Shown here in pieces: positions 3,001 to 24,000 of a stretch of 64,000 nt of DNA. The DNA comes from an uncultured Planctomycetales bacterium (lineage in GTDB: Bacteria; Omnitrophota; Gorgyraeia; Gygaellales; Profunditerraquicolaceae). How positions within the stretch are numbered: position 1 is the first letter of the stretch; each line of letters opens with the position of its first letter. The stretch lies in the NCBI GenBank assembly GCA_964354795.1, contig CAYHBB010000040.1, positions 76,593 through 140,592 on the forward strand, given 5' to 3'. Position numbers and translations under genes: made by a program. A model generated the notes under the pieces. That model saw nothing but the letters and a program-made list of their open reading frames with translations. It was not told where the DNA came from and searched no databases.

Positions 3001-6000
3001 GTGCCAGGGGCATTTATCACTATAATCATTCTTCCAGATATTCCATAAACTGTCGCCTTCCTTGACAATGATAGTATCAGCCGCCCTCTTTTGTGGCTGA
3101 GCAACGGATTCCGCGTTTACCAAAGATGCAAATAAAGTTGAGGTAAGGATTGTAGCCAGCGATAGAAAACCGAGCAGCTCAATAAAAGTTTGGCCGCTGA
3201 CAACCTTTGCGCCCCTAATATAGCGTTGCTCAGGGATCGTTCCATCGCTAAGGGTATTGCGCAGCCGGTTATCTCTTGCAGGACCATGTGGTGCCGGACT
3301 GTCCAGCCCTTTGGTCACCGACCAGAAAAGAATATCCTTGGACGCTCCGATAAAAATAGAACGGTATGTATTCTCTCCTACGAGAAAAGTTATCTCTACA
3401 AAATTATATTCAGCATTAGTATGGACAATTTTGTAGTGGGCATTGATGATGATCTCCAGCGCCTTCTTCAATGGTATATCTGTCCCGCTTAAATCTTTTT
3501 CGGTCAACCCGCCACTGACAAAATCCTGAGCGATTCTTTCCTCTGATTCTCCCGTAGCCCTGGCAAGCTGCATTATCAGGGAATGCTGCATAAGCTTATC
3601 TTTTAAGGGAAGATTCGTTTTGATCTTATTCGCGCCTTCCTGTGGTTTCGCCTTGGACTTTCTTGCTGCTGCAACTACGAAAATCAGCCCTGCTACCACT
3701 AATACGCCAAAACCTACCACTAACCAAAACGGAAAACCCAGAATATTCGACGGAATCGTTGCAGTAATAGTAGTTATTGAGGCAACTAACGCAAAATCCA
3801 AAGGCACAATGGAAAAAATACCTTCCGGGCGGGGATGGGTTTCTGCGGACGATTGAGGATCTGCTGGTAATGAAGAATCAGGCATAGAGGATTTCTTTAA
3901 CAAATCAGCTACCTGAGCGGTTAACTGCGAGTTTCTAAAAGGCTTATGCATTATGGCATCTATAACAGTAAGATCCAAACCCCTGATCACATAACCGGAG
4001 ATCAATATAACCGGTATATTTTTATTCTTCGCCTTTACCTCTTTAGCTAATTCTCCGCCGTTTTTACCGCCGGGCATTTGAAAATCAGTTATGACTAGGT
4101 CAATATTTTCTACCCCTAATATCTTAAGCGCCTCTTCGGCATTAAGGGCGGTCAAAATATCATATCCTTCGCCACTTAACACCGCATCAAAAGTGCGCAA
4201 GATCATGGGTTGATCATCCACGAACAGTATTTTCTTCTTAGCGACAGATCCGGATTCAGTGATATCTTGAGAAAGCTGAATGGCCCCGTTTCTCGTTGAG
4301 TCCTCTTCTTCCTTCTGCGTATTCACGGGCTGAAGGCTGGGGATGACTTCCGAGGCGGGTTTGAAAACGCTTATCTCGGCAGAGCTTTGCCTGGCCTCGT
4401 CAGCAGCGCACTCCATTATCTTCGAAGACATTGCAGAAATAGGGATTCTCTGGTGCGGTATTCCGGCTCTGGCTATGCTATCCGGCATCTCTTCACAATA
4501 CCTGCTCCCATCTTTTGCAATTTCGCTTGGCGTAATATGCTGGACAAGAACTATGCCTCCGTTGCCCGCAATTTCTTTCGCTCCCGCCGTTCCATCCGAT
4601 CTCAAGCCTGATAAAACAACACAAATAACATCCTTATTGAATTCTGCTGCTGCCGATTTAAATAACAGGTCGATGGGAGAATACGCAATAACCTTACTTC
4701 TCCTAATGACCTCCCCACTAGCCGCGCTATCGAATAAAACCATAACTACCGGATAGCCGTTGTTATCTTTTTCAATCCAAGCATCCCGGCTAGTAACAAG
4801 TATCATCCCGCGCTCTAAATAGAACCTCTTTGGCGAATCCACACTTGGTTCACACAAAATGATCTTTCTCGACTTGTTTTGCTGAACAAATTCGGTAAAT
4901 GCGGCATAGCAGGGCCGTAAGTGTTCGTTAATTATGACCGGGGGATGATCCTGCGGCAATCCTTCAATTATCTCTTCGATCGCTTCATATCCACTGCGAG
5001 ACGCGCCGATCACGATTACCTTTCCTTTGTAGTCGATTGGCTTATGCGTGTCCGCTTGAGGAGTGGAAATTACTGTACCGAGAAGTATTGGTAGAATCGC
5101 AAGTGCCGCAATCGGCCCGGCGGTGGCTAGAATACTTGTGCCGATGCCGGCAAGGGCAAGCTTAATCGCGGCCCAATGCGGCGCGATAAAAAACGTTATC
5201 AGCGCGCCTACCGCCACCAACCCAATGAGCGCGATCAGGCTTACCCCGAGCTTAGTCGAGGGGCCTTGGCCTTCCTTCGGGGACACCCTTCCGATTTCCG
5301 CCAAAATTCTTGGCGGACTCGCCGCGTTTTGTGGCGAGGGCTCCCTGGCTGTCCCTTTTGCCATGAGGCCCCTTAACCTGATTAACTCATCACGGAATTG
5401 CTTTAGTGAAGAATACGCGCCGCTTCTTACCTCCCGGTGAAAAGCGCTAACTTCGCCGATCAGCCTTTGATTAACAGCTGTGTCATCAGAGAATCTTAGG
5501 CCGGGGATGATTTCCTCTATGAGCCTTCCTCCTTGCTCCCACAAAGCCGCATTAAAAAGCAAGCATTCTAGCTTAGGATAAATAGATAATTCCGTTTTTT
5601 TGTAATCAATAAAAATAACGTCTCCATTAGCAGTGACAATTTCATTATTGTCATTAATATCCCATATGCCGCGCACCCCTTTTTCCTCAAGATAGATGCA
5701 GATCTCGGTGATTTTTATCACGATATTAAATACCTCATCAACATATTCGCTAAGCGGCCTGCCTTTATATTTAAGAAAATGATGCGAGAAATCCCTGCCT
5801 TCTACATAAGGATAGACTATCGCCTCAGAATAGATATACGTATCATAATCGTCGGAGCTGATCCATAATCTCTTTCCGGGGTTTAATTCCGGCCTTGCGG
5901 TCATTCTGCGGGGACGATACACTTGAGAGTAATCGCCGCCTATCCTGTCAAAAGCCTCCTCTATGCCGTCACAGTGCGCCGTGTCGGAACAACCTTCCCG

Positions 6001-9000
6001 CTCTGTTTCAAGCTTGCGAATAACCACTAATTTCGCGGTATCCTCATCTACAGCTAAGTCCAGGCGCCGGGTATCTAACCGTCCGAAAGTACCGAGGATA
6101 AGGTATCTTTTATTTTCCTCCCCAAAGCTAAGCACTAACTCTTCGCATGGTTCTGGGGCCAGAACAATCCCTACCGGCCTTTCCCTGTTGACCGCTATGC
6201 GCATTAGTTCCGCGATCATCCTGTTCCTGCGGGACCTGTCCTCAAAGAAGAACCTAAACAGGTCCTCCGTGAACGCATCAGGCCTGTTTTTCATCCAGAA
6301 GAACAGCTCATCAAAACTCTCCCATTTCAGATCTTCCACTTCCCAAGAGCCGGGATTAGCCTTATCAAGCCTGGCCATTTCCTCGGCGATCCTATCCGCG
6401 TTCCCCTGTAGCTCATAATGTATCTGTGCCAGCGTTTCCGCCCTTCCTTTTATCCTGGACATTTCTTCTTCGGTCATGGGCAGGATAAAAAACGCCCTTC
6501 TTTCCTTATTGGAATCAGTTTCTGAATCATAAATAAATTCCCCGGGGACTCCCACCGGAATAAGCCTCTGCTTTAATCTTTCCTTAAATGTATCTGTCAA
6601 CTCCTCTTGGTCATATATATGCATCTGCTTTGTGACTTTATTGACAACTGAATCCAAATAACTAAAACCCGCCTCCAGATGCCCGCCGAATATTGTCCAT
6701 AAGTGGGGGTATTTCTTGAATCCTGCGCGCTGCTGCAGGATAAGGCCAAAATCCGGGGTTACCAGGGCGACATTTGCGGTCCTGTGCCAAAGGCCGGCGG
6801 CTTCAGCGATATTCTTATCTGCCTGGCCGATTACCTTTTCTTGGCCGGTAGTTGAGTTAGGGTCCAAAATATCGATTATTCTTCCGCTAGGATATAGAAA
6901 CGCAGGGTCCTCCTGCGGCAGGCGCAGCCTTCTTACAATTTCTTCGATCTTTTCTGCTTCAACGCCCAAGGATTTAAGATTTTCTCTTACTTGATCCAAC
7001 GCGCAGGCGCCAAGAAGGGCCTCTTTGCTTTTTTGCGCTTCCTCCCTTTCGCCGTACAGCTCTTCGTAATGGTTCATGACGCCGTTCATGATGCCGGAGA
7101 TCTGCTCCATCGTAGTATCGAACGGCATCTCGCATGTTAACCCGAGGAGAAAACGGTCGCGGTGCGCAAAGCGATCCATAATGGAGGATACTTCAGCCGT
7201 CAGCTCGGCAGGATCTTTCGCGGGAGTTATCTGTGAAGCCATGATGTTACCGATAAGATAATTTCCGGAAGCGGTAAGGACTTCGTACGCCTTTTCGAGA
7301 TCGACCTCCTCGTCGATGCTGTAGGCGTCGACGTTAAGGCCGGTCATGTTCGACAAAAACGGCGTCGAATCGCCGCAACCGTGGAAAATGACACCGATGC
7401 CCTTCGCCTTCGCCGCGGCGGCTACGGCGTTCACACGCCGCGTGATGCAATCGTCGTAATACGACGGCGTCATGATGGCGGTCGAAGGCTCAAGGATGAC
7501 GATAGCGTCCGCGCCGGCCGCGGCATACGCCTCGGCCTCCTGAGCAGAGACCTTTACGCAATAATCGAGGAGCGCCCCGAATGTCTCGGGATCGTCAAGC
7601 ATCGCCATGGCGGCATCCGCTTCGCCCACCAGGCGCGCGGCGAGAGTGAACGGCCCGATCACGTAGCCGACCTTAGCGACCTTGTTGCCGTATTCCACGC
7701 TGAGCGCGGCCATGGCGTTTATGAATACGCCGGTGCGGCCGTCCCTGTCGATCATCGGAAGTTTCAGTTTCGCGATATTCTCCTTCGTCAGAGTAAACGC
7801 CGGCCCAAATAACCTGCCTTCCTGGTCGATATGTTTCGGCCCGAAAACGGACCGTACCGGAAGCGCGCCGCTCTCTTTATTCGCCTGATAAACGGCCTCC
7901 GGCCATGATGAAAGATCCATCATCGTAAATACTACGTCGAGCCTGAGAGAATCCTGGACGAACCGTATAACCTCAGCCTGCTTTGACGGATCGGTGGCAA
8001 GATCCTTTACCGAATAGTCTTTACGCTCGTGTTCGTTAAAAAATTTCACTCCGCCGAAACTTATAAGCGGCATCCACATGGCTCTATTGCGCATATCGTC
8101 AAAGGTGATCCTTGCGGCTTCGGGCGCCGGAGCCGCTTCGCCTTTATCGACCCTGCCCCCGTCCAACGTCTCGCGCACCACCGCCCCCAGCATGCAGGCG
8201 CCAAGGATTAGCGGCAGGCTGTTCGGCGCGACAAACGCCGCCAACGCGCCCAGCGCCACAAACTCAAGCAACGCAATCATGCCTTGGCCAGACGCAGGGG
8301 ACACCCTTTCGATTGGCTTGATGGGTGTCCCTTGATTGGGTTCATGGGTGTCCCCATCTTGACAGAAGGAAGAACGCAGGACATACACAAAGGTCTCTTC
8401 TTGGATAAATACAGGCGCTCCCTCGCCCATATCATTCCATTCGCGGGACTTGACTTGGCGCTTATACGGCCCAAACTTAAAATAAGAATGATTTTCCCTG
8501 CCGGAAAACTCCTTTATTTTACTTTCGATTACGCGCGAAGCCTCAACTGAACAATGATCATCCGGGAATACTGAATGCCGGAAAATAACCCTTGCCTGCG
8601 CGACGAGATACTCCTGGACATTCGCAAAGAAACATTCAACATGTTCCTTATATACATATCTGTACCCGCCGTCAACAGACCTATCCCAACCGTCGACTGG
8701 AGAAGGAGTAAAGACAATAAGGTTAAATCTCCTTCCTTCCAGCCCCTGGAATAGATCTCCGCAGACAAACTCAAGCCTGCCCGGATTTGCGTTATTGTAA
8801 CCTAAGCTTTCGGCATTGGCCCGGGCGCAATCGACCGCCGCCTCTTTTACATCTGTAAATGTCACATGGCCGGCTCCCCGGCTAAGCATGATCAATCCTA
8901 ATATGCCTGAACCCGTGCCCAGATCAAGGCAGCGCTGGCCCGAGATGTCCCTGCCTAAGCGCTTTGCGATCACCCCTGTCAGCATGCCGCTGGGGGTGTA

Positions 9001-12000
9001 GACATCTCCCCCTGAAATTACGTACCCATCAAGTTCGGCTACATAGACACTCTCCCTCTGACGATAACTATACCTGCTTTTCAATGGTACCGGAAAATCC
9101 TTAGGCCTGGCGGAAGGCTTATTTCTTTTTATTCTGATCTTCTGGAAACTTCCTTCTTTCGACCATCGACGGGCGAGAGATTCCGGGACAAAAACATCTT
9201 CAGAATCTGAGAGGCTGCAGCACAATAAAAGCAGAGCTAATGCAAGAAAACTTAAATTGCCTGCGGAGACCACTGGCAAAGCTAAAAAATGTGCCAGCGC
9301 TCCGAGAGCCACCAGACCCGTTAGAAATACCAAAACGCTTACCTTGCTGACCAAAATTTCTAACGGGGCCAGCCCAAGGAGAGCAATCAGGATTGCCCCG
9401 AGCTTAGCCGGGGGGCTTTGGCCGGAAGATGAAACCCGGCCCTGTCTTTCCTGCATTGCCTTCTGCATTGCTTCGGCTAAAAACCTACAGGAATCCTCCC
9501 AGATGACACCTTTATTTATGTATAGGACAATTACCCCTTCTTTTCCTTTTAGTCTTTCCTGAACAATCTCTTTTGAACCATCGGTCCTCAAAATAACAAA
9601 AGTATCGGGCTTTATAGTTTTAATTTCCGACGCAAGCTGATCCCCATCCATTGTACACATATGCAAATCAGTAATAGCTATATCAAAGGGGCCTTGTCCG
9701 CTTTTGAATATTTCTATTGCCTCCTCTGCGCTATGTGCCGAGACAATGATGAATGCTGGATCGATCTTTCTTAATTGCCTGACCAGCAATTCTAAATCTT
9801 CTTCAGCATGTTCTATGACTAAAATTTTAATTGGAATATTTATATGTTGTGCGGATTGAATAGTTGCGGCGATAAAGAGGAGGCCGAGGCCAAGCGCCGC
9901 AATTGGTGGGCCGTGGTGCATGAATGCGCCGGCGATGGCAAGCTTAACCGCAGCCCAATGTGGCGCGATGACAAAAGCCGTCAGCGCGCCAAAGGCCATC
10001 AGCCCAAGAAGCGCGATCAGGCCCTGGCCACTGCGTGATCTATTTATCGAAGCACTGCCGGCCTTTCTTTCCACATACTCATCCACCGCTTTTAAGAATG
10101 CCCTGTTTTTCTTTGATTCAAGATAATAAAATGTATAGGCGTGCAATGGTCCCGCGGCGGAATCCATAATCTCTTTTTTCTTTAACCCAAACTTGGTCAA
10201 TTTATCAAAGAAACCTACTGCTGACCAAAGTTTGTCTTCGCAGGCTTCCGCGTGAATGGCGCCGTTGCCTATCTTCTGGCTTAAGGCTGCCGCAGCCTGC
10301 ACAAGCCTTGTGCCTACATAAGACAGCCCATTTTTGTTACCGGATGACCTTTGATGTTGCGGCTTGACGTCAACGGAACCGATAGCAAGCGCGTTATCCC
10401 TGTCGGGATACTCATAGTAATCCAGCACCTCCCTGTCAAATTTAAGGATCCCGGCCACTTTCTCCTTAGCGGTCAATACCAGCTCTTCCGATTCAAGATT
10501 AAGGAATCCGCGTATGATACAGGGCACTTTATTTCCGGCATCATCAATGACAAAAGTATCCTGCCTGAACCTGAAAAGCCCCCTGCGCAAAGCGCTAAGC
10601 GGATCGCTTATTGCTTCAAGTTTCAATCCTGCAGGCATCATGAGGGACAATTCTTTTTCCGCCTCGCTGGCAGAAGTAAAGTGCCTAGAAGGTATACCGC
10701 AGGATTCTGCGTTTACGACAAAATCCTGCCTGTCATCAAAATAAAGCATTTGCGAAGGCTGCACATAAAATTCCTGCTCGGTAAGCAGTAAGAATTTACG
10801 GAATATCTGCGCCCCGTCTCCCTTTCTAATACCCATCTCATAGGAGGCGTAAATACGGTCTGCCGCGCTTAACACTTCATATTTCCGCTTCAAATATGCA
10901 AGATGCATATGATTGGTATCGCTTAGGAAAGCCACTTTGATTCCGCAAGCCTTGAGCTTTTTTATCAGGTCAGCCGTATCCTGCCTTAGCTCGTATGAGC
11001 CGTTCCAGATACGCTTAAACGTCGCAAAATCAACACCCTCCAATTGAAGCTCTTCGGACATCTGCGCTACGAACTTACTTGTCGAGACCTCTCCTCTTTC
11101 GTAGCTGTGGTAGACGCCTGAATCCCTTAAAATAGCCGTTACCTCTTCTACTGTCTTATTGGTAAAGCCTTCTTTTACGAATCTCTCAGCTACCCTTTTA
11201 AAATCAAAATAGACAACAACGTTTCCAATATCAAAGACTACAAACCTTAACCTATCTGTGGATTTCTTAGAAACTGAAGAGGAAGTGTGCGTGGAAGACA
11301 CCGCTGCGGCAAGGAACGGGAGGAAAGCTATCGAAGCCAGTGGCCCGGCAATGGCAGGATGGCTCGCAAGACCAATGATGGCCGCCAGCAAGCCCAACCC
11401 TGCGAAACCAAAAAGTATAAAACACGCTAAATTATGATCAAACCAACCATGCGATCTTCCATTGGAAGAAGTGCGTTCGAGGATCTTCTGCTGATAGTGC
11501 TTTATCCAATAAAAAGCGTTATTAAGCCTCTTCTCCTGCTTTTTGGGATCCAACGCTTCTTTTAAAAAATCCACCCCGTCTTTACTTATATCAGATTTTT
11601 CTGACGCCTTAATAATAGTGTCCCTGTACTTGATGAAGGCCTGCAAGACCAGAATCTGTGTTTGTGAAGCCCTGATCTCATCCTCCTCGAATCTTAACGC
11701 CCCATACTTGATCTCATTAAGCATGTGGCCGTAAGCCTCATGGACAAAATCAGCCAGCATCACCGACGGATCATTTAAAACATTTTCATTAAGAATGATC
11801 ATATAGCTGTTTGAATTCGTTCTTTTGCTGAATATCTCAATATGTAACCCTGCAGGAGCTCGCCCTTCAAATCCCTGCGGGATATACCCTTTGCTGAATT
11901 TATAAAGCTGGACCATTTGCTCATCCGAGGCCCTGCATATACGCAGCCTATCGGTTTTCCAAAGCTCCAACACCAAGGTCAAATCAGCTTCCCCGGAGAA

Positions 12001-15000
12001 AGCGCCAACCATAGCCATCGCGACCTTGATCAGATCCAGTTTCTCTTCTTCGATCGCCTGAGCGGATACTTTTTCCAACAACTTTAATTCTTCCAGCTTA
12101 GCATCCTTAGGGCTCAATATTCTTCTGCCAAAATCATCCTTCATACCAAGCCCATTGACAGAGAGCTTAACAACCAATTTTACTCCAAGCAATGCTGCGA
12201 CAAGCGCCAAAACAGAAGCGATTACCGTTACTTTAGGTTTTCTGAAGAAAGCGAACACGCGGCTTCGGTCGGCGATTTTTGCCGCATTGATCAACCGCCC
12301 TGCTTCCTGATGGGGGCTGGGCCGGTCTTTTAAGGAATGCTCTATGACTTCGTGGATTAAGTCTTCTTTTGCTTCTTGGGTTTCTTTCTGGAAAGAACTC
12401 AGGCTTTCTTCGGTAACGATCAGGGTGATTTTTCCGTCAATGCTGATGATGACTGCGCCAAAATCCTTATCTATCCCTATTTCCCGATGCCTGACTACCG
12501 CGATACGATCAATACTTTGGACTACGGGCCCGGCGCGGATATCTTTAGCTTGAGCAAGTATTTTGCCTATCCCCTCCTGCTGCCCGGTTAAATACGCATT
12601 CACCCAAGGCATATCAACTTTGATTATTTTATTCTGCCCGAAGACTTTCTCAATTCTTTTTAGATCCTTACGTTTTAAGGCTCCAGTTTTACCGCGATTA
12701 TTTTCATCCTCTCCGGGCAATTCAGCGTCGAAAACTGTTTCCGCCTGGTTTTTCCAGAGCTTCGCTGTTTCCCCATTATGTCTCACCATTATAATCTTCC
12801 AATCAGCCCTAAAGGGATTCCAGTAATTCTGTCTTAAGTTTCCCTGAAGGATATGCGGGTACTTTCTCTTTATCCGTTCCCAGGTTGAAACATAAAACTC
12901 ATCAATGCCCATAGATCGGGCTACCTTCATGACATGCCTTATGGCAGCGTTGTTCCACACCCGGTAAGGATTCTCTTTAAGTTTTATCTGCCGCACGCCT
13001 CTGCTGGGATGCACTTCTTCAATAAAAAGAGCGGGCCTGCCGTCGCAGTAAAGATCTATTATTCCCACCCTCAGCCTTCCAAAAGAGCCATCCAGAGGAA
13101 GATAGGCATCGTACTCCGTAGGCGGGAATTCGACCAGGGCAGAAAGCTCAGGATGTCCGTCGATAAAACCTTCTTGCGGGAATATATCTGCAAACGGCAA
13201 TATCCGGTAATCAAAATCTGATTCTGTTAAATCACAGCGCGCAGGTATCATAAGGTTGCTGCCATCGCAAAACTTATATTCCCATTGGAAATCAGGATCT
13301 ACCTTTATCCTCTCAAAGAGCTCACCCGTTAATCTGTCTTTTTCTATTTGAGTCAATCCTTTTTTATCTTCCTCCGTTGCCACTCCGATGGTGCAGGCAC
13401 TAAGCATTAACGCCGCCGGCAGATAACAGGAAATAGCAGAACCAATCCCCGTGAAAACGAGCGCGGAAAAACCAAAGAAACCAAAGAGTACGAACATTAT
13501 TGGATACTGGTAGTAATAATTATAAGGCTCGAGGGTATCAATAATAATATCGGGATTACGCGGCCCATTGGTTTCCTTTGTGTACATATATTTATTCACG
13601 TGCCTGAATCGCTGCATTATCTGCCACCATTCCGGAAAACGTCCGCGCGCCCTGACCTTAAGCCGGCCCCTCCTTACTTTCTCATCCGTAACTATCACTT
13701 CGGCAAATACGTCGAGAAAACCGTTATCCTGCGGTATCCTGTTGACCCCTTCCACTATAAACACATCTACATTTGAGTTATCCTTGCATAAACCAGCGAA
13801 TGTCATCTCTGCCCATGATTCCAGAGGGGTCCTTTTTTGTTCTTTGAAGGCAGTTTTTTTGTTCATTCCGTTTGATTTCAACCAATCAAGCAGTGTATTT
13901 CTTATTAGGGTCTTACCGCTTCCGGGCTTGCCCTTGATCAGGACAACCACCGGCCTCTTGCGGCCCTTTGCCAGCTCCTCTTGAATGCGCTGCTTTAAGA
14001 CAACCAAACCCTGTCTTAAGCCAAATGCATTAGGTGAAGACAGGTAATCGGACCGGGCCATGCCAAGCAAAAACGGCGCGGCAATAGACACTGAAGCGAA
14101 TAAATTGAACCAGTGGTTTTGGGCCGCTTCCCATAAATCAAAATCAAAATTAGAAATTGATATGATCTGAGCCAGAAATGCCAAATACCAAAGCACAGCA
14201 GCGCCAAATATACCCCAGAATACCCACCGTCCAAATAGACTGAATATCTTTTTGAAATCAATATGCCAACAGCTGGGCCTATCCATTGACTCGGTTGCCT
14301 TAAAGACTTCTATTCTTAACTCCTGTGGTAGCTGAGTATAGATAGAATCATCGAGGATAGCTGCCTTTGCCCAATGTGTGATCGCTGTTTTTTCATTACC
14401 AAGAAAATAATGGATGTAGCCGAGATTTCCATGCGCCGCAGCGATATTTGGGTTACTAACCAGGACATCCTTGAAAAAGGGAATGGCTTCGTGATACCTT
14501 TCTTCTTCGCAGTATTTTAACCCCAGGTCAAATAATTCTTTTATTGTGAGCTTGGAATGCCGCAGGGTATATCTTTTTTCGCGGTTTTGACTAAGTTGAA
14601 CGCACATCCCTCCCAAGACAAAAAACGTAATAGTGGCGAGAACGCTTGTGCCGATGCCTGCCAGCGCAAACTTAATCGCGGCCCAATGCGGCGCGATAAA
14701 AAACGTTATCAGCGCGCCAATCGCCACCAGCCCAAATAGCGCAATCAGGCTTTGGCCGGAATTACCCTGCTCCTCAGTCGGCGGATTCAATGGATCATTG
14801 GAACGGTAGTGGTCAATAGAATAAATTTTTCTTATGATATGTGGATAGCGATTTTTATTTTGATATCCAGGAATAAATATATTATAACTTTTATCAATCC
14901 TTACTTCAGATACTCTGGCTAAAGACAAGAAAACCATTTTTACTTTTTGAATATGCGTTCGTAATTCATCAACTATCCCACGATCAAATTTCTTTAACCT

Positions 15001-18000
15001 GCCTCTAACAACATAGAGATCAATCACACATTTATACTGTCCGAATGCCTCACACAGAGAAAATGGTACTGCCAATAAAAGCCTCTTTAGGCGCGAATCA
15101 GCAGTTCCTTTAAATAGATCAATACGCTTACACAATATTTCATAAATGCAGTCGAGCTCATGACAAACCTTTTCTAACTTACTAATTGATGGCTTTTCCA
15201 TGGCGTTAGCAATCTCTTCTGCCATTTCCAAGTGAGGCCACACTTCTTCTTTAATACTTTTTGCTTCTCTACGCACTAGTTTAACAACTGTTTCTTGAGG
15301 CGTTCCCCGAGGCGCTGCCCTTTGATCTTGTGGTTGCTTCCCATTCGCAGAAACCACCACTCCCAGCGCGCAGGCGCCGAGGTTAAATATGCCAAGCCCT
15401 AATGCCGACGCATGGATCGGCCCAGTGATAAGTATCGGCGCCAAGATAAACGCCAGCACCACTAGCCCAAGAATTCCAATTAAGCTTTGTCCAGATTGGT
15501 TATTGATACATGCTGTCGCAATTGTGTCGGAAACAGTTTCCCCTTGGTTTTTCCAGAGCTTCGCTGTTTCCCCATTATGCCTCACCCTGACAATCATCCA
15601 ATCATACCTATAGGGAATCCAGTAATTTTGTCTTAAGTTTCCTTGACAAATATGTGGATATTTTTTCTTTATCCGTTCCCGGGTTGAGGCGTAAAACTCA
15701 TCAATGCCCATAGATCGGGCTACCTTCATAACATGCTTTATGGCAGCGCTGTTCCACGCCCGGTAAGGATTCTCTTTGAGTTTTATCTGCCGTACGCCTC
15801 TGCTGGGATGCACTTCTTCAATAAAAAGAGCAGGCCTGCCGTCGCAGTAAAAATCTATTATTCCCAACCTCAACCTTCCAAAAGAGCCATCCAGGGGAAG
15901 GTAGGCATCGTAATTCGTAGGCGGGAATTCGACCAGGGCAGAAAGCTCAGGATGTCCGTCGATAAAACCTTTTTGCGGGAATATATCTGCAAACGGCAAT
16001 ATCCGGTAATCAAAATCTGATTCTGTTAAATCACAACGCGCAAGTACCATAAGGTTTCTGCCATCGCAAAACTTATATCCCCATTGGAAATCAGGATTTG
16101 CTTTTATCCTCTCAAAGAGCTCGCTCAGCAACCTGTCTTTTTCTGTTTGCGACAATCCCTTTTTAGAAACACCCTTAAGACTGTTTCTTCCCGGACCCTT
16201 GTCGTCATTTAACTTACGGCAGAACTGTCCCCCATCCTGAACACACGCCGCCACCATCACTGCGCCCAGCGCTCCTGCCGGATGCATAAGGCCGGCAACC
16301 GCCAGCGCGCCCAACGCCACCAGCCCGAGGAGCAAAGGTAGGCTAAAGCCGGATTGAGAAGATGGGGAAACGTCCCCGATTTTATTTATTTTATTCAATA
16401 TTTCTCTTAACCCGCGTAAGTCTTTTTCCGCGGCATTGCTCATGGCAATAATTAAGTCAAAATGCTCACCCCTAAGCTGCTCCACCTTTCTGCTGATTAA
16501 TTTATTTATAAAGCGGCGTTTGCGCTTCAGGGTGCGCAGGCTGATTTTCTCTTTGAAGTTCTTCTGCTCGTTCATTGCAAACTGCATTGTCGCCTTTGAA
16601 CACAGGAAGCTCTTTATCTCGGGAAGGGTTAACCTGATCGATACACCCTTTTCGGTCATAACCACCCTGGAAGCCACCTCTGGCCGGTTGCGGATAAATT
16701 CTTTTAAGGCCCTGGCGACATAACCGTAGTCTGCCTCGCCAAAATACACCAGGTTCCTGATCGAGGCAAACTCTGGGTTAACCACAAGCTCCCGCAGGTG
16801 CGGCTGTTGTGCAGAACTAATGCCGATTACCTGCTGGTAGAGCTTGCGCAGGGTAAGGTGAAACTTAAATTCAAAAACCGCGTTTTCGCTTATTGCATCA
16901 AATTCTTTTACCTGGATTTTATCCCTGATTAGCACCCTGTCAATTGCCTTCAGCCTTCCGGGGCTAAGGTTCTTTAATGTGCTCTGCCTGTTTATGACAA
17001 CCTCGTATAACCCCGATATCTCGCCAGCCCATCCCAGCACGCGGTAGCGCCAACCTTCACCTGCCTGCGGCCACTTAGCCATATCCTTGACCGCTGCCCG
17101 GACAAATCCATGGATCATCTCAGCTGCCTGCCCATTGTATTCTAATAACTGCGTAACTTTCCTGCGGAAATTTGCAAACGAAAAGTCCCGGTTCACGAAG
17201 TTGCTCAATTTCTCTAAATCTTCCTCGACAGAAACGAAGCCAGGATTATTTTCTTGGGAAAGCACTGCGCCAAGAGCAAAAATGCCAAGCGCTAGTGCCG
17301 ACGGGGCATGAATCAGGCCGGCAATAAGTATTGACGCTAAGATAAACACCAGCGCCACCAGCCCGAGGAGCGCGATCAGGCTTTGGCCGGAGTCAGAGAA
17401 AATAGAACCGTCCCCTTTATTTGCAGGCAGGCTGAAGCCGGATCTGGATTTTTGGCTTTGTTCTCCTATCCTCTTGTGCAACAAGGCCTCCACGGAGGTG
17501 GAAGCGTCCCCTTTACTATATTTTTCTCTCATCGTGGCAAACTTCTTCGCTATTATTCGCCTTTTTTCTACACTATTCAACATCCGAGGACGGAATATAA
17601 GATAGGACCGAAAACCGGATAATTTAATATCAATAACCACAGGGGCCGTTTGTCCGTCTGCTAATGTTCTAACAACCACGTTAGCAGAGGATAAATCCGC
17701 GAAATTAAGTCTGCTACTCTGCATAAACTCTTCAATCCTTGCCATCTTATTCCAAAAGTCAGCGCTTTTGACCACCCCGTAATCTTCAAGGCGGGGAGAA
17801 ATACGGCCAGTGGCATCCAAAATACATTCTGTTTTTAGCGCAGTTTTTCCCCTGTATTTAGCGAATCCGTAAATTTTAGCAAAGCTATCCCGTAGATCAT
17901 AAGGGATAGACGGCGCAATACGTCTATACATTTTGTATTCATAACTGTTAAAATCCAGGATAAATAAATGCCGTAATAATGTGCGTATCCTCACTTCGGG

Positions 18001-21000
18001 CATAAGGATCTTAAAAACAAAGTTACCCTGCCTGTAAACGCGCCGGTGCGTGCCTCGAGCTACATAATCATCTTGTGCCTGCTGGCCATTCACAACGTCT
18101 CTGTGGTCGCGGTCGTCCATAAAAGCTGCTATCGTCTCTATTACAATCTGCCGTATTAATCGCAAAGACCAATTGCGAATCTCATGACTATTGACCTGCA
18201 TCGCCTCTTGTAATTCCTGAACTGTCTTAGGGCCCTTTCCGAAGCCTCTATGCGGACCAAATAAGCACAAGCCGCCCGGCCTTCTATAGGTAAAAACATC
18301 GACATAATCTGGATAATCTCTTAGGTTTTCCATCGAAAGAGGGCGCGGACCCAACAAAGACATTTCGCCTTTGATAATATTTACCACTTGAGGCAATTCA
18401 TCAAACAGGTTCTTCCGAAGGAACCATCCCAATGGTGTATGTCTTCTCTCTTCTGGTATGTTTGTATGAGTGAGGGTTCTAAATTTATAGATTCTAAAAG
18501 GGCGGCCTTTATATCCTATACGTTCCTCAGTATAAAAAACGGGGCCCTTCGATGTGAGTTTTATTAACGGTGCGATAATAATCGTTGCAATACAAAGAAC
18601 CGGCAACAACGATATCCCAACAATCATATCCATAGCCCTTAACCGCTTTACCCACCGCCGATAAGGAGTCTTCTCGTGTTCCTCGGTGCTTATTTTCCAA
18701 TTAAAACCAGAGTGCCCGGAGTTCGTTATTTGGCCAGCCGCGCTGATTCCATCGCTGTCGTTGCGGAGGTCTTCGCGGAGGGCATCTCTTGGGCCAATGT
18801 AGAACTTCCAAAGGATATATTCATCGGTCTCAACCAGAGAAAATCCTGCCTTCTTTAAGCATTTCTCTGTTTTGGCAACTTCTTCCGGGTCGCGATAAAA
18901 CTCTCTCTCATCTCTGCCGAAATAAACCGTAATTGCCCCGAGAGGACCCTTTATCAGATCGCTGTTTACACAGATGGCCATAATCAACACTAAGGCCTCT
19001 ATTCCGTAATCATGGTCCCTAAAATTAACCTTACTGAAAGGACCGCCGTGTATTGCATACCTGAACCATCTTTCCTGGGGCGGGTCAACAGGGCAGTCTA
19101 TAATCCCATGCCCTATGGCACAGGATTGGTCTGACCGTAGCGATATCAGAAAAACGTGTTGCTGTGGTAGTGCCTCTAAAGAGAATTTTCCATCCTCGCC
19201 GATCCGTTTTAAGACCCTGAAGAACGTGATTTCTATGTTTTTAAATCTGAAAACCTGGCAACTATTCTGGTCGAGGCTTTGCGGAAACATTACCCTGCCG
19301 ATTCCCGCAGGACAATTATAATCAGCCATACCTTTTATAAGCAGTTTGACGCGGCGGGCGGTTTCCTCAGCCGCCGAAATTTGTTCTTTTTCAAAACGAA
19401 CGCTTCGGATATACTCTTGACTCAACGGAATGGCATGATGGGGCACGGATGGGGAAGCGGGGACGTTTCCCCCTATTGTAACAGCTTTATTCTCATTGGG
19501 TTGCGAAGGCGAATTAAGAATTTGCTTATCGGAAGGCTGGATTGTTGCGGCTAATAGCGGGACGGCGGAAAGCGCAGCAAACGGCCCTGCGGTGGCGGGA
19601 TGACTCAGTAAACCAATAATAGCCGCCAGCACGCCCAGAGCCAAGAGGCCAACAAATAGTGTGATTAAGTTCTGGCTGGATGACCGACAGGGACTGTCCC
19701 CGCTTTTTGGGGACTGTCCCTGAATTTGTTTCCCTAAATCCTTGCGCTGCAACGTGCCCAAAGAGGGGGAAACGTCCCCTCTAATACACTCCCATTCCCC
19801 CTGTTCGAATTTGACTTTAACCGGCTCTCCCCTTACCCCGGATCTGTATACTGCTGACATTAACTTAATACCAATGCTGTGATCGGCAAGCGAGGATCTG
19901 ACTATTGCCTGCGTCAAATCTTTGCTTTCTGCCAGCACGGACAAGAACTCTTTCGCTGGCAAACTATCGTCTTCCGGCTCTACCGGCATAACCTCGATAC
20001 TCTTAGCGCTTCCTGTGACTACCGGGTTAGTTAAGAATAGAAGTTCGGCATGGCTGTCTCCTCCGATAGCTGCTTTATCCGAAATCCCGAATTTAGCGAT
20101 TCTTCTATACTGCACTGCTGCAACCGGGCCCTGATGAAGACTTAACAACTCATATTTGACCCTGAAACGGTCTTTTGAGATTATGGTTACCCCTTCATGG
20201 AGAAACTTTATACTAACCTGACATCTTTTTTCATCTCCATGTTTAAATGTGATAAGAATGTTTGCGTTGATTTCCGAAAGCCCTCTCAAGTTTTCTATAA
20301 CTCCCGGATCGATTTCGGAAAGCAGCTTTATTTGGCCGTCCCTGTGCCGGAAAACCGGAAAGGTAGTAAATGAATCCATCGGACGCCACAAATCAGCGTA
20401 AACTACCGCGCTATCAATATCCTTCGGATTAGTATGGCGGATCAACCACGGGATAATATCAAGGAAATGGTAGCCTGAATGCGAAATCTTGCCTCCGGCA
20501 GACTTATACGCCCATTGATTGCTTCCGTAAGACCCAAGACTCGCTTCATGCTCGTCTTTTGCAAATATCCAGTAACCGTCATTTGTCTCGTAATTAATGC
20601 TTGTAATCGGCACGGTTATCCCGTCGATACGGTTCGCAGAAATTCTTGCGGCTATTTTATTGAATACATCGGAGTATCTTTTCTGTGTAGCCGCCATAAA
20701 AAGCAACCCGGGCTTACTCTTGGCTATTCGCATCAGCTCTTCATAATCAGCAAATATCTGGCTAGCCCCGGCTTCGTCAATGCTGCAGCCTGATGGAGTA
20801 GTCAGAGGTTTATCCACAAGGACATGGTAACCAGCATTCAGCGCCCAGGAAACGTAGGCTTTATGCGAGACTGGATGAGTTGAAACAATCACTGCTATTC
20901 TTTCATAATCCTTTAATTTATCCTTCAGGCTTTCCTGTGTATCAAAGAACCGTTTGACTTCTTCCTCTGCAGGAACCCTTTTTCTCCATTCGTCGGGGAC

Positions 21001-24000
21001 ATATCGCTCTATCTCAGGCTGCTTTAAGCCCATACGTTGATAATATCTCTTGAGCTCCTCTTCATGCCCGCTATAAACTACTTCCTCCGCATCTCTACCC
21101 CTTGTGCCATTTTCTATTCTAAAATCAACAACAGCCAATAAGTGGCATTTTTCCCGATAACCCTCTAACGCGCGTAAATGAGCACTTAAAGCATACCTAC
21201 CGGCACCAATCAATATCACCCCAACTTTATGTTGTGGCAAGGAACAGCCGATAGAACCTTGCACTGAAGCCTCCCTGAAGGGAAGCGTGCCATCTTTATC
21301 TGCCTCATAAATATAATGCGTGTTATCGCTTATCGATGCTCTGATAGTAAAACTGGGGGGCGTTTCGGGGTTTTTGGGCTGGATGATCGCGCCGATGAGT
21401 GCCAGAGGCAGTACAATCGCAGCTGCCGGCGGCGCATGAATTAATCCTGCGATTAAAACCGGCACTAAAATATAAACGAGCACCACCAGCCCAAGAAGCG
21501 CGATCAGGCCTTGGCCGGAAGTAGGCTTCTTGTTAGGTTGAGGACTGACCAGGAAGGCCTTATAGAGCAGGGCGATCTCTTCGGCAGTGGCTTTTTCTTT
21601 CAATTTAAAATCCTTTATTGCTGCCTGAATAAGGTCAGAGGCAAAGAGGGTTTGCTCTTCTAGAGGCACCTGTTTCGCACAGGCGGCCTTTGGCTCTCTT
21701 TTAAGATAAGGCACCACTACGCCTAAGATATTATCTCGTTTATGTTTCTTCAAGCTAGGGATAAGGCAACCGAAATTACTTACTTTGGTAATGAAAAGAA
21801 GTGTATCGCAGGCAGTAAAAACCGGTGATTTCTCGGAAATGAAAGCGCTCTTGTACAGGCGGGCCCTCCAGTAGCGCGGAGATCCCGTGATAAGGTTATT
21901 CTTTGCGTGCCATTCGCGGAAAACCCTGCTGAAGACAGCCTCGTCATTAGCGTATCCTTTAACTTTATTCATATGCACATCATTGAGAAAATTCTGATAA
22001 GCCCTCATAAAACGCGAAACCAGCAAAGAATCTTCGGTTATAGAAATGATCAAATCTAATTGCCCTACTGCTCTAGCTGCCTTTTTCTCTGTAGTGGCGG
22101 CAGCAATCAATATGGAGGCGCGCTTAATCGCGTTAGTAAGGCCTGTAAATTCGACTTCTCTGAAGAACGGCCAGCGCAGTAATCTCTCCAACTCTGCTTT
22201 TGCGTTTTCCCGCCCTCCCCCTTGGAACAGTGACTTAATATCTTTCGCCCTGTCGATCACCCTGTTAAAACGCCTTTCTCCACACTGGCGCAGTTCAAGA
22301 CGCAATGATTCAAGATTTGAAAACATACCTTCTATGGCATGCAGGCGAAGCCCGATAAAAGGCAATGCTGCGCTCAGGCTTTCCGCCGCCAGCTTGAAAT
22401 ATCCTTTCTCAAGCAACTGCGCTGCAGTCTCCAGATCACTACGGCACTCTTTCTTAGATTCTACCTTTACGCCCTTAAGCTCATCGGCGAGAAAAGCGAT
22501 TTCCCTTACCAACTCCATAGCAGTATCCCTGGCTCCGGGATAATTGACAAGCTCTGATGATTTCCTTGAAATATCTTCAATCCTGTAAGAGAAATCTTTC
22601 ATCTTCCGGTAATCGCGGGCCAAAGAAGCAAAGATCTTATCCAGTATCCTGTGCCAGCGGTAAAGCGTAAATGTCTGCGGGCGCTGCCTGACCAAAGTCG
22701 TTCCCTCTTCGCTGAGAAGCCTGCCCATCAATATGGTGAATTTTCCGTTCTTTTTTCCTTCTTTTTCTTCGACAATCTTCTCTTTTACTTCCTGACAGTT
22801 TGCGCGTATGCGCTCATCCAGAATTTCTTTTCTTTGCTCTGCGGTTTTTCTGGATAAAGCGCTTAAGATCGCGCAGGCTGCCGGCTCATTGCCTTTTTCG
22901 ATCAGGCCCACTATTTCATCCGCTCTCTCTATACCGCTGTTTCGGATAACAATTTTAAGCTGGGCAATATTTCTCGCCACCTCTTCAGCTCCCGCCCTAC
23001 GCGTTCCTAAGCGTAAAGTGCGATGGTGCAGATCCTTGATTCTTTGGTGTCCGGCTTTTAACCTGGCCTCATGCCCATCTAAAGTCATGCCTAAAAATCC
23101 GCAGCAAGCAATGGCCCCGATTATAAACACTGGCTTAGCCAGTAAAATAGCGGTAACCCCTATCAGAATGAAGATTAATGGCAAATATTTGAACAATGAA
23201 ATAAAGTTATACAAACTGGAGTCCAGAGAAAGGCAGGCTTGTTTAAGAAAATTATATTGCTCTCCTATATCTTTTGCGCTAGCCACATCCGTTTCGGTGC
23301 AATTCCAAGTACTACCTTGATCAGGATGGCGGAAAGGAAAGTTAGTCTTTCCGTCAAAACCACTGACCAGCCTTATTGAGCCATCATTAAAAACCTTTGT
23401 CCCCGGATAAGGAATGGCTATATTATAGGACGCGCACGTGCCGAGTGCGCAAAGCATGATTAATAACGGCGGAGCACAAATAGCATGGCCCATGAACCCG
23501 GCAAGCCACAAAGGCAGGGTAACGGCGCATAAGAGAAATAGCCCCAGGGGCATAAGGTATTCGCTAAGAATGATGCCTGAAGCGGGATCACTGTTTTCGC
23601 TTCCTGCTCTTTCTTCGATTTTGTCGATGTTATCTTGGATCTCCTGCGCTGCCTCGCGCAATAGCTTTACGGCTTTTCCTAAAACAAATATATTCCTCTT
23701 ACGGTTTTCTCCAAGAAAAACACAGTTATAGAAATAACGCCCCAGGGTACTCCACAGGATAGGGTCGTTTATTGTGCCTTTATTTTCCGGCGGGTTTACG
23801 CGGCCCAGATATTTCTCCGCATTTAGCATTTCAAGAATGGCTAAATTCCCTGCAAGTTTTTTGCTTTCCTCAACAAATGTTTTCTTCGGCAAGATCAATT
23901 CTCCCTTGCCATCCTTGATGTTTTGCTCCAGTCCTCCCAGTAATACCGTCAGCGAGGAATTTAGATCGTGCTGGATCCAACTGTTAAAACCTATTGAAAA

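Follow-up and report, generated by a model that had tools for sequence, protein, structure and literature searches.

A 64,000-nucleotide stretch of contig CAYHBB010000040.1 (assembly GCA_964354795.1), analysed here in full and referred to as the window, is read through by one giant minus-strand gene in which hydrophobic segments recur between enzyme modules, and the question is what these segments do. We noted that many of them belong to one family of related cassettes, called SGQ cassettes after their conserved motif, and the evidence points to their being membrane-anchoring hairpins that probably hold successive modules of an Omnitrophota-type giant multi-enzyme protein on the same side of the membrane.

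The Giant Open Reading Frame

In a six-frame translation of the 64-kb window, offset 1 of the minus strand is a single open reading frame (ORF) of 21,333 codons with 0 stops, compared with 623–1,565 stops in each of the other five frames. The window is thus an internal piece of one gene of more than 64 kb, open at both window ends. Residues are numbered on the translation, such that aa i starts at window coordinate 64002-3i. GC skew keeps one sign across the whole window, and no Rfam family was detected in the 64 kb.

1..64000, minus strand: uninterrupted ORF (0 stops) for a predicted giant multi-enzyme protein, the chain being tiled by at least 25 distinct Pfam families

A plus-strand reading was rejected: that strand has seven ORFs of 150 aa or more, all of them antisense shadows of the giant ORF. 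In two of its frames, stops are about half as dense as in the other frames, most likely a codon-bias shadow rather than a sign of genes. Antisense plus-strand ORFs of 297 and 310 aa lie at 32809–33702 and 48803–49735, respectively.

Hydrophobic Clusters and the SGQ Cassette Family

Scans of the ORF with the Kyte-Doolittle scale and with Hessa-type biological insertion values returned about 45–56 hydrophobic clusters. Windows of 19 residues with a summed insertion free energy (dG) below 2.5 numbered 346, compared with 24.9 in shuffled sequence (~14-fold), and 47 non-overlapping 19-mers fell under the insertion threshold (~4% of residues, by hydrophobicity scales only). A first-pass annotation of the window had described a recurring motif forming membrane-type hydrophobic linkers between soluble modules; the motif is indeed present, in the minus-strand protein, the linkers do have this character, and all 29 positions given for them coincide with a hydrophobic cluster of the giant ORF. 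Its figure of about 27 copies of one motif was an overcount: hydrophobic linkers are many, but only about 13–15 copies, around half, are demonstrable as one family.

Three methods agreed on family membership: a profile hidden Markov model (HMM) derived from the most clear-cut copies, self-BLAST, and pairwise alignment scored against shuffles that preserve composition. Twelve copies are firm (the first 12 lines below), with HMM scores of 24–68 bits and shuffle z-scores of up to 21.8. Beyond these, we noted a half copy retaining helix 1 only (aa 20268), a degenerate double copy (aa 18196–18266), and a probable member (aa 2170), while ~17 other clusters have no sequence relationship to the SGQ family. 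The remaining sites of the first-pass annotation comprise single helices (about 2690, 3130, and 25100), two-helix clusters of no relation to the family, and helices belonging to the M50 and sugar-transferase modules described below.

54424..54567, minus strand (aa 3145–3192): distal SGQ-family copy, ALVHPTS turn; 41.5 bits
44554..44703, minus strand (aa 6433–6482): distal SGQ-family copy, GLVHPAS turn; 54.4 bits, codon identity at chance
21355..21531, minus strand (aa 14157–14215): SGQ copy (SGQGLIALLGLVVLVYILVPVLIAGLIHAPP...IGAIIQ); HMM 59.9 bits, helix 1 of 23 aa, turn of 4, helix 2 of 15
19516..19692, minus strand (aa 14770–14828): SGQ copy, SHPATAGP turn; 31.4 bits, z = 18.9 against the aa 17517 copy
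17236..17403, minus strand (aa 15533–15588): SGQ copy; 52.7 bits, helix 1 dG sum -5.28
16213..16368, minus strand (aa 15878–15929): SGQ copy, short type, MHPAG turn; 49.8 bits
15325..15510, minus strand (aa 16164–16225): SGQ copy; 48.2 bits, 44% identical to the putative hairpin at locus L015 (Omnitrophota metagenome-assembled genome, MAG)
14572..14772, minus strand (aa 16410–16476): SGQ copy, long type (IAPHWAAIKFALAGIGTS); 68.1 bits, 89% nucleotide identity to 5123–5242
11275..11451, minus strand (aa 17517–17575): SGQ copy with diverged N-terminal motif; 23.7 bits
9835..10044, minus strand (aa 17986–18055): SGQ copy, long type, a receiver domain beginning 4 residues later; 47.7 bits
8155..8304, minus strand (aa 18566–18615): SGQ copy, PNS turn; 55.7 bits, 68% identical to the putative hairpin at locus L024
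5041..5262, minus strand (aa 19580–19653): SGQ copy, long type, a CheB methylesterase beginning 9 residues later; 53.6 bits, 44% identical to residues 89–175 of protein P0001
9202..9414, minus strand (aa 18196–18266): degenerate double copy (KLGAILIALLGLAP... then LTGLVALGALAHFLALP...) with three hydrophobic segments; weak HMM match, repeat family D4
57364..57492, minus strand (aa 2170–2212): probable diverged family member; z = 7.3 against aa 3144, weak HMM match
3118..3198, minus strand (aa 20268–20294): half copy, helix 1 only (SGQTFIELLGFLSLATIL...), apparently crossing the membrane as a single helix; z = 11.3 against aa 15537

The cassettes span ~40–70 residues and follow the motif (RVSP..)SGQ[SG]-LIALLGLVALGAL...-H/P turn-...LGAV[VI][SQ], with SGQSLIALLGLVALGAL...AG.xH...LGAxVQ as the consensus across the 12 copies. 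Each opens with a flexible Ser/Pro/Gly/Lys-rich lead-in (often RVSP..GQG) followed by SGQ[S/G] and then helix 1, a Leu/Ile/Val-rich segment of 17–23 residues with small residues spaced for helix packing. The summed insertion dG of helix 1 is -0.2 to -5.3 in most firm copies, with values of +0.7 to +1.2 at aa 18566 and aa 3145. The turn is usually 3–8 residues built on His and Pro (HPA, HAPS, SHPATAGP, PHW, PNS) and contains no Asp or Glu; in two long copies, it is expanded to 20–23 residues by an amphipathic stretch (PHWAAIKLALAG...), and the only basic residues in any turn, 2 Lys in total, fall within these two expansions. Helix 2 has 11–18 residues; LGAV[V/I][S/Q] forms its end, and the residues after it are polar and uncharged. 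The flanks have an ordinary charge content. The first-pass annotation took each copy to be long enough for two transmembrane helices, which describes the strongly membrane-like helix 1 well and the short, marginal helix 2 less so.

Probable Same-Side Topology

Domain order along the chain provides the main evidence as to where the cassettes leave their neighbours. The Pfam families show a sugar-metabolism and signalling repertoire, none of them dominating, and no Pfam domain envelope is interrupted by a linker or cassette. The modules are as follows (all from Pfam matches).

aa 21–1264, minus strand: dCMP deaminase and three epimerase/dehydratase modules (Epimerase/GDP_Man_Dehyd)
aa 1814–6009, minus strand: peptidase M50, PGM/PMM I–III, HD, weak phosphorylase match
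aa 7697–8632, minus strand: ELFV (Glu/Leu-type) dehydrogenase, Sigma70_r4, transglutaminase core
aa 10129–12836, minus strand: AAA_11/AAA_12 (SF1) helicase, weak protein-kinase match, glucosamine-6-P isomerase-like, PAS, receiver
aa 14355–17757, minus strand: GFO_IDH_MocA, Bac_transf, TPR, HAD
aa 18059–20361, minus strand: receiver, small S-adenosylmethionine (SAM) methyltransferase (MTS), URO-D, CheB methylesterase with receiver, LysM

Four receiver domains (Response_reg) occur in the chain, and most modules need ATP, NAD(P), SAM, or cytoplasmic partners. The PAS domain (aa 12559–12662) and the receiver that follows it (aa 12733–12836) are separated by exactly one cluster, and one cluster likewise stands at each junction in the series HAD, receiver (aa 18059–18145), SAM methyltransferase (aa 18344–18432), URO-D (aa 18736–18972), and CheB with receiver (aa 19662–20030). 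An odd number of crossings per cluster would put every second module outside the cell, so the chain must end up on its original side after each cluster. From this flanking-domain parity, the best reading is that the cassettes hold successive modules on the same membrane face, in agreement with the tethering proposed in the first-pass annotation. We take the face to be the cytoplasmic one because the modules depend on cofactors or partners found there (PAS, receiver, methyltransferase, CheB).

Two periplasm-type domains are arranged differently, in that the LysM domain is flanked by the helix-1-only SGQ copy and a second single helix, and the transglutaminase core by two single helices.

2686..3069, minus strand: LysM (aa 20311–20361; 21.1 bits, cutoff 20.9) and putative return helix (aa 20420–20438)
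37726..38715, minus strand: single helix (aa 8429–8449), transglutaminase core (aa 8552–8632), and single helix (aa 8735–8758), with Sigma70_r4 (aa 8326–8375) just upstream

The LysM arrangement can be seen as an 'opened hairpin' with a peptidoglycan-binding domain placed in the loop, and the position of LysM after the helix-1-only copy suggests an inside-to-outside orientation for SGQ helix 1.

Taken together, whole enzymes of free-standing type and signalling domains would be fused in frame in one predicted polypeptide, helix 1 taking the chain from the cytoplasm into the inner membrane and helix 2 bringing it back. Both flanking modules would thereby be kept on the cytoplasmic face as 'beads on a membrane', and periplasm-type domains (LysM, transglutaminase) would instead have a single helix on either side. 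Hairpins with short loops are classical substrates of YidC, and we infer that the cassettes would be inserted into the membrane by the signal recognition particle (SRP)/YidC/Sec machinery.

Several observations weigh against this topology. Helix 2 measures only 11–15 residues in 9 of the 12 copies and mostly misses the hydrophobicity threshold alone, the flanks have no marked positive-inside bias, and three strong single helices (aa 3000–3018, 12945–12963, and 17259–17277) have no obvious partner, with the parity bookkeeping failing at these points. AlphaFold2 modelling of cassettes, suggested as a check in the first-pass annotation, gave discordant results for the two isolated copies: the aa 15533 copy was predicted as one continuous 47-residue helix (residues 5–51) with no hairpin, and the short aa 15878 copy as a helix (9–28) that breaks exactly at the conserved His-Pro (His29) before a second helix (30–45). 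The break in the short copy fits a hairpin. Both models derive from shallow alignments and reach moderate confidence (pLDDT 77 and 69, respectively), and the pair would be compatible with either a hairpin or a single long helix.

These same features could describe a monotopic anchor, in which the cassette, a helix-break-helix like that of PglC, reaches into the cytoplasmic leaflet and back, with no periplasmic exposure and both flanks on the same side. Helix 2, at only 11–18 marginally hydrophobic residues, would suit such a re-entrant element, as would the uncharged turn and the conserved mid-cassette His-Pro break at which the AlphaFold2 helix is broken. We nonetheless consider it unlikely, given that helix 1 is of bilayer-spanning length (17–23 residues) with a very negative insertion energy, that the helix 1 of the half copy at aa 20268, followed by LysM and a second helix, behaves as a true membrane-spanning helix, and that the cassette has no Pfam relation to Bac_transf. 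A spanning hairpin and a re-entrant helix-break-helix both yield the same-side result.

If only helix 1 crossed the membrane, the linkers would be single-pass and the modules would alternate between the cytoplasm and the periplasm or cell surface. Helix 2 does lie under the insertion threshold in most copies, and single-pass linkers would fit the mostly extracellular predictions for domains of giant proteins reported by West-Roberts et al. 2023, where predictors also disagreed on helix number and placement (bioRxiv 10.1101/2023.11.21.568195). Alternation, however, would put the SAM methyltransferase, or the neighbouring receivers and CheB, outside the cell, and the same authors called extracellular sugar-phosphate enzymes 'highly unlikely', considering them probably mislocalised through missed helices (bioRxiv 10.1101/2023.11.21.568195). 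We therefore regard single-pass linkers as very improbable.

The M50 Module and Possible Processing

The chain carries an apparently intact peptidase of the site-2-protease type, which could in principle act on many hairpins of the same chain.

58036..58608, minus strand (aa ~1798–1988): peptidase M50 with its own membrane helices and HEFGH and ...PTDGG motifs; 72.5 bits

The cassettes might accordingly be read as polyprotein processing sites cut by the M50 module or by signal peptidase, which would be compatible with an anchoring role. Besides the presence of the M50 module in the same ORF, the helices have conserved residues at their borders (SGQ ahead of helix 1 and V-x-S/Q behind helix 2), and cleavage of giant proteins by embedded peptidases has been raised as a possibility (bioRxiv 10.1101/2023.11.21.568195). 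Yet the cassettes have no NCBIfam or Pfam sorting-signal or signal-peptide match, a hairpin topology would put the C-terminal end of helix 2 in the cytoplasm, beyond signal peptidase I, and many module junctions lack a hydrophobic linker (e.g., those of the three epimerase modules at aa 200–1410), making processing sites quite unlikely.

Age, Duplication, and Selection

Similarity between the copies ends at the cassette edges, with the flanking modules unrelated by self-BLAST. The first-pass annotation had noted a nucleotide-level likeness among the linkers and attributed it to recent internal duplication. The likeness itself is well founded, as repeats of 57–120 nt with 61–89% identity (families D2–D4 and D7–D9) connect linker copies, the 12-mer GCGCGATCAGGC occurs exactly 4 times in the window (5229, 10011, 17370, and 21498), and a degenerate 34-nt pattern encoding GQxLIAL(L/F)GL finds 4 matches compared with 0.00 expected. 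Its recency has little behind it. The rate of synonymous substitution (dS, Nei-Gojobori) is 0.61 for the closest linker pair (aa 16410/19580), with a ratio of nonsynonymous to synonymous rates (dN/dS) of 0.18, rises to 0.8–1.8 in most pairs, and is saturated in the distal pair; this range, from 0.61 to saturation, contradicts recent duplication. Across the copies, dN/dS is 0.13–0.48. Codons at identical residues agree in 523 of 1,128 cases overall, against 312 expected, with the highest agreement in the aa 16410/19580 pair and chance levels in the distal copies. A peptide conserved despite diverged synonymous sites indicates old paralogues under purifying selection rather than recent duplicates.

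These data bear on whether the cassettes are a neutral repeat, a mobile element, or the left-over N-terminal anchors of former genes, tolerated but unselected. The nucleotide repeats of 57–120 nt, the excess codon identity (523/1,128 versus 312), and the occurrence of the cassette beside single modules in other, smaller ORFs, consistent with a fusion origin, would all be expected of such remnants. Against them stand the shared frame and orientation of all copies, a dN/dS of 0.13–0.48 at a dS of 0.6 to saturation, the retention of the motif in distal copies whose codon identity is at chance, and the absence of any Rfam, intein, or Hint match, leaving this account with hardly any credence. An intein, mobile element, or ribozyme was rejected as a candidate, with no Hint or intein Pfam match and no Rfam family in the window.

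The truly more recent events in the gene are two other repeats. A 227-residue module with no Pfam match (motifs DPDFQWEYKF...CDLTESDFDYR...GRPALFIEEVHPSRG) is duplicated at window positions 15484–16164 and 12685–13365 (aa 15946–16172 and 16879–17105), with 82% amino-acid and 87% nucleotide identity and a dS of 0.28. A 22-residue peptide, KTCHAPLQRIEKG(N/D)LLPSVAG, is found at 57884–57947 and 44909–44972 (aa 2018–2039 and 6343–6364), copies 13 kb apart with 97% nucleotide identity over 64 nt. Each copy lies 100–150 residues upstream of a family-type putative hairpin, and an LPSVAGG sub-repeat occurs nearby (57821–57901 and 44717–44797).

Relatives of the Cassette

None of the 12 copies had a significant Pfam or NCBIfam match when scanned against libraries that include sorting-signal models. 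The first-pass annotation had held that a match to a known soluble repeat or intein-like family would speak against membrane linkers, and no soluble-repeat, sorting-signal, or intein family was found in these scans. The sole NCBIfam match was a non-significant one to Loki-CTERM (E = 0.16) in 1 of the 12. A sorting signal (PEP-CTERM, GlyGly-CTERM) was rejected as a candidate on the basis of these scans, having no significant NCBIfam or Pfam match in the 12 copies.

An exhaustive search of 1.84 billion representative proteins with a 54-position linker profile returned one protein, P0001, a single match that is no measure of rarity, as the library evidently lacks relatives of the L024 type (L024 would score 53 bits). 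P0001 is 2,578 aa long, nearly fills a 7.9-kb JGI contig, and contains two to three cassette copies along with a homologue of the TPR/NFDFD(L/M)WE region of the giant protein. A word-indexed search with aa 17986–19653 and aa 15878–16230 gave no match among the 8,000 candidates listed, a result of little weight.

A degenerate DNA pattern scanned against 185,579 species representatives returned mostly chance matches (e.g., a conserved Sphingobium gene), and such pattern scans yielded three further loci, L024, L023, and L015. L024 (metagenome contig Ga0315288_10032322) has an ORF open at the contig start with a SAM methyltransferase and three cassettes; a module encoded there is 71% identical to window aa 15949–16152, and thus to the duplicated 227-residue module. 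L023 (contig Ga0172375_10013414) has a 2,193-aa ORF in which a cassette is followed by a SAM methyltransferase. Two ORFs in the same frame lie on this contig (L023:19–780 and 799–7380) with a single stop codon and 18 nt between them; they may be parts of one larger gene, divided by a stop or a sequencing error. The only taxonomically named relative is L015:5362–7998 (minus strand), from the Omnitrophota MAG LacPavin_0920_SED3_MAG_45_14, with an ORF open at the locus edge that encodes a cassette, a lipoprotein-signal-like helix (MPRFLLVVVLFVTALFNSGC), and then at least 7 HEAT repeats. In L015, a putative hairpin and one single helix hence precede HEAT, for which West-Roberts et al. predicted an extracellular location. 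The Omnitrophota assignment of the giant ORF draws on this one MAG and on the literature.

On other contigs, far smaller ORFs have this cassette before or after a single module, and the giant gene therefore likely originated by repeated in-frame joining of 'anchor + module' units.

Other Modules and Linkers

The first epimerase module is a full-length GalE, with 96% coverage of a ~330-aa free-standing GalE at ~40% identity. It carries no taxonomic signal, as its best matches are ~40% identical and come from many phyla. The three epimerase/dehydratase modules stand head to tail (window 59767–63393, aa 203–1411) with no hydrophobic linker between them, indicating that membrane staples are not placed at every module junction; two of the three are 48% identical over ~200 residues.

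One hydrophobic helix belongs to an enzyme rather than to a linker.

18550..18636, minus strand (aa 15122–15150): N-terminal hydrophobic helix of the Bac_transf phosphoglycosyl transferase, the enzyme's own (Bac_transf 127 bits, aa 15121–15294)

A region without annotation that contains an HExxH motif (FVHEAYGHM) lies at window 11436–12156 (aa 17282–17522), after the unpaired helix at aa 17259–17277, and may, judging by this motif, be an unrecognised metalloprotease-like domain. Elsewhere in the chain, Sigma70_r4, a single helix, the transglutaminase core, and another single helix follow one another (window 37726–39024, aa 8326–8758), an arrangement that recalls a sigma or anti-sigma-like transmembrane signalling unit incorporated into the giant protein.

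The linkers outside the SGQ family include a second small family with two members, situated inside a duplicated ~300-aa module (aa 8655–8899 versus 10910–11149, 28% identity, E = 7e-14).

30808..30918, minus strand (aa 11028–11064): second small putative hairpin family (AMGFTILPFAVIHPCVYF...), with a paralogue at aa 8769–8810 (37570–37695); z = 7.3
within 23080..30546, minus strand: six two-helix clusters unrelated to the SGQ family (aa 11152–11201, 11544–11593, 11975–12025, 12672–12727, 13476–13523, and 13598–13640)
within 23080..30546, minus strand: single helix (aa 12946–12967)
13378..14223, minus strand: unrelated two-helix clusters at aa 16593–16648 (NFDFDLWE loop, conserved in P0001) and aa 16832–16874
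1570..3822, minus strand: unrelated two-helix clusters at aa 20060–20115 and aa 20770–20810

Implications

If the same-side hairpins are confirmed and single helices bracket only periplasmic domains, multi-enzyme giants would be enzyme chains on the cytoplasmic face rather than extracellular 'coats', and hypotheses about them would move from degradation of the prey wall to membrane-organised metabolism and signalling. The grammar of hairpins and single helices would offer a simple rule applicable to hundreds of published giant proteins, and the cassette HMM is a sequence handle for finding giant-gene fragments in fragmented assemblies. This matters as giant genes take up a sizeable share of the very small genomes of ultra-small Omnitrophota.

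A more far-reaching idea is that the cassette is a portable 'membrane staple' with a function beyond anchoring, with either a dozen or more copies in one chain zipping together via their small-residue faces into an ordered two-dimensional metabolon array or the copies serving as M50 substrates that release modules. We think this unlikely, but a zipped array would constitute a membrane-bound metabolon from a single gene, and M50 release would make the protein a bacterial regulated polyprotein whose modules are freed on demand by intramembrane proteolysis. Either version would also account for the growth of such genes, with whole genes being captured in frame at a standard connector.

Comparison with Known Systems

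Several systems share parts of the arrangement seen here. Flavivirus and hepacivirus polyproteins (~3,000 aa) are cleaved at defined sites and carry cytoplasmic enzyme modules between short membrane helices or hairpins. The likeness lies in one long chain with soluble modules on the cytoplasmic face and short membrane helices between them, whereas neither homology to the giant ORF nor a sign of its cleavage was found.

The re-entrant helix of PglC/Bac_transf (PF02397) is likewise a helix-break-helix with Pro at the break and a cytoplasmic catalytic domain, and the giant protein itself includes an enzyme of this type together with its helix. The cassette differs in lacking a Bac_transf match, in having a helix 1 of full bilayer length, and in being placed between unrelated modules.

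With SREBP and the site-2 protease, the system shares cytoplasmic domains held, as proposed here, by a two-helix hairpin, together with an M50 intramembrane protease. In SREBP, the lumenal loop has ~30 residues and is first cleaved by site-1 protease, whereas the turns of the cassettes are mostly 3–8 residues. The sorting signals PEP-CTERM, GlyGly-CTERM, and LPXTG also place a short polar motif before a Leu/Gly/Ala-rich helix, and SGQS-LIALLGLVALG resembles PEP-x-LALLGLGLLGL and SGGS-L..., but the cassettes are internal, have no basic tail, and are followed by a return helix, which sets them apart from this class.

The closest counterparts are the giant proteins of Omnitrophota, in which ORFs of more than 20 kb are common (e.g., a V. 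archaeovorus ORF of 39,678 aa with 42 predicted helices; PMC10066038) and have their enzyme domains interspersed with tens to hundreds of transmembrane helices (PMC10066038; bioRxiv 10.1101/2023.11.21.568195; bioRxiv 10.64898/2026.06.07.730766). Nielsen and Lui 2026 defined a 'multi-enzyme metabolic cluster' class, with a Pfam repertoire of PGM/PMM, receiver, methyltransferase, and HAD, as well as a 'TM-only' topology class of membrane-anchored cytoplasmic domains (bioRxiv 10.64898/2026.06.07.730766). The ORF in the window matches these giants in exceeding 20 kAA (thousand amino acids), in combining many distinct enzyme and signalling Pfams (PGM/PMM, receiver, methyltransferase, HAD, and TPR) with no dominant repeat, in its size (21,333 codons, within the >10–30 thousand codons of the group), and in its share of helix residues (~4% here, by hydrophobicity scales only, compared with ~2%). 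The archaeovorin subtype (West-Roberts et al. 2023) is marked by a divergent SecA_DEAD helicase domain along with many HEAT repeats and glycosyltransferases of the GT5/GT1 types; no SecA_DEAD, HEAT, GT5, or GT1 Pfam was found at E<=1e-3 in the window's 21,333 residues, the gene extending past both ends, and the ORF is not assigned to that subtype within the window.

The view in the first-pass annotation that this is not a described family was therefore wrong as regards the arrangement, which has already been described in the Omnitrophota giants. Published descriptions differ in that they count helices and leave the topology ambiguous, and they mention no hairpin cassette that is conserved and homologous; neither preprint (West-Roberts et al.; Nielsen and Lui) contains the words 'hairpin' or 'linker', and we found no parity rule there. 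The conserved hairpin sequence family itself appears to be undescribed. The ORF is best explained as a new and highly divergent example of the giant multi-enzyme protein class known from Omnitrophota, to which the cassette and the grammar of hairpins and single helices, in bearing directly on the side of the membrane where these proteins work, add modest new details.

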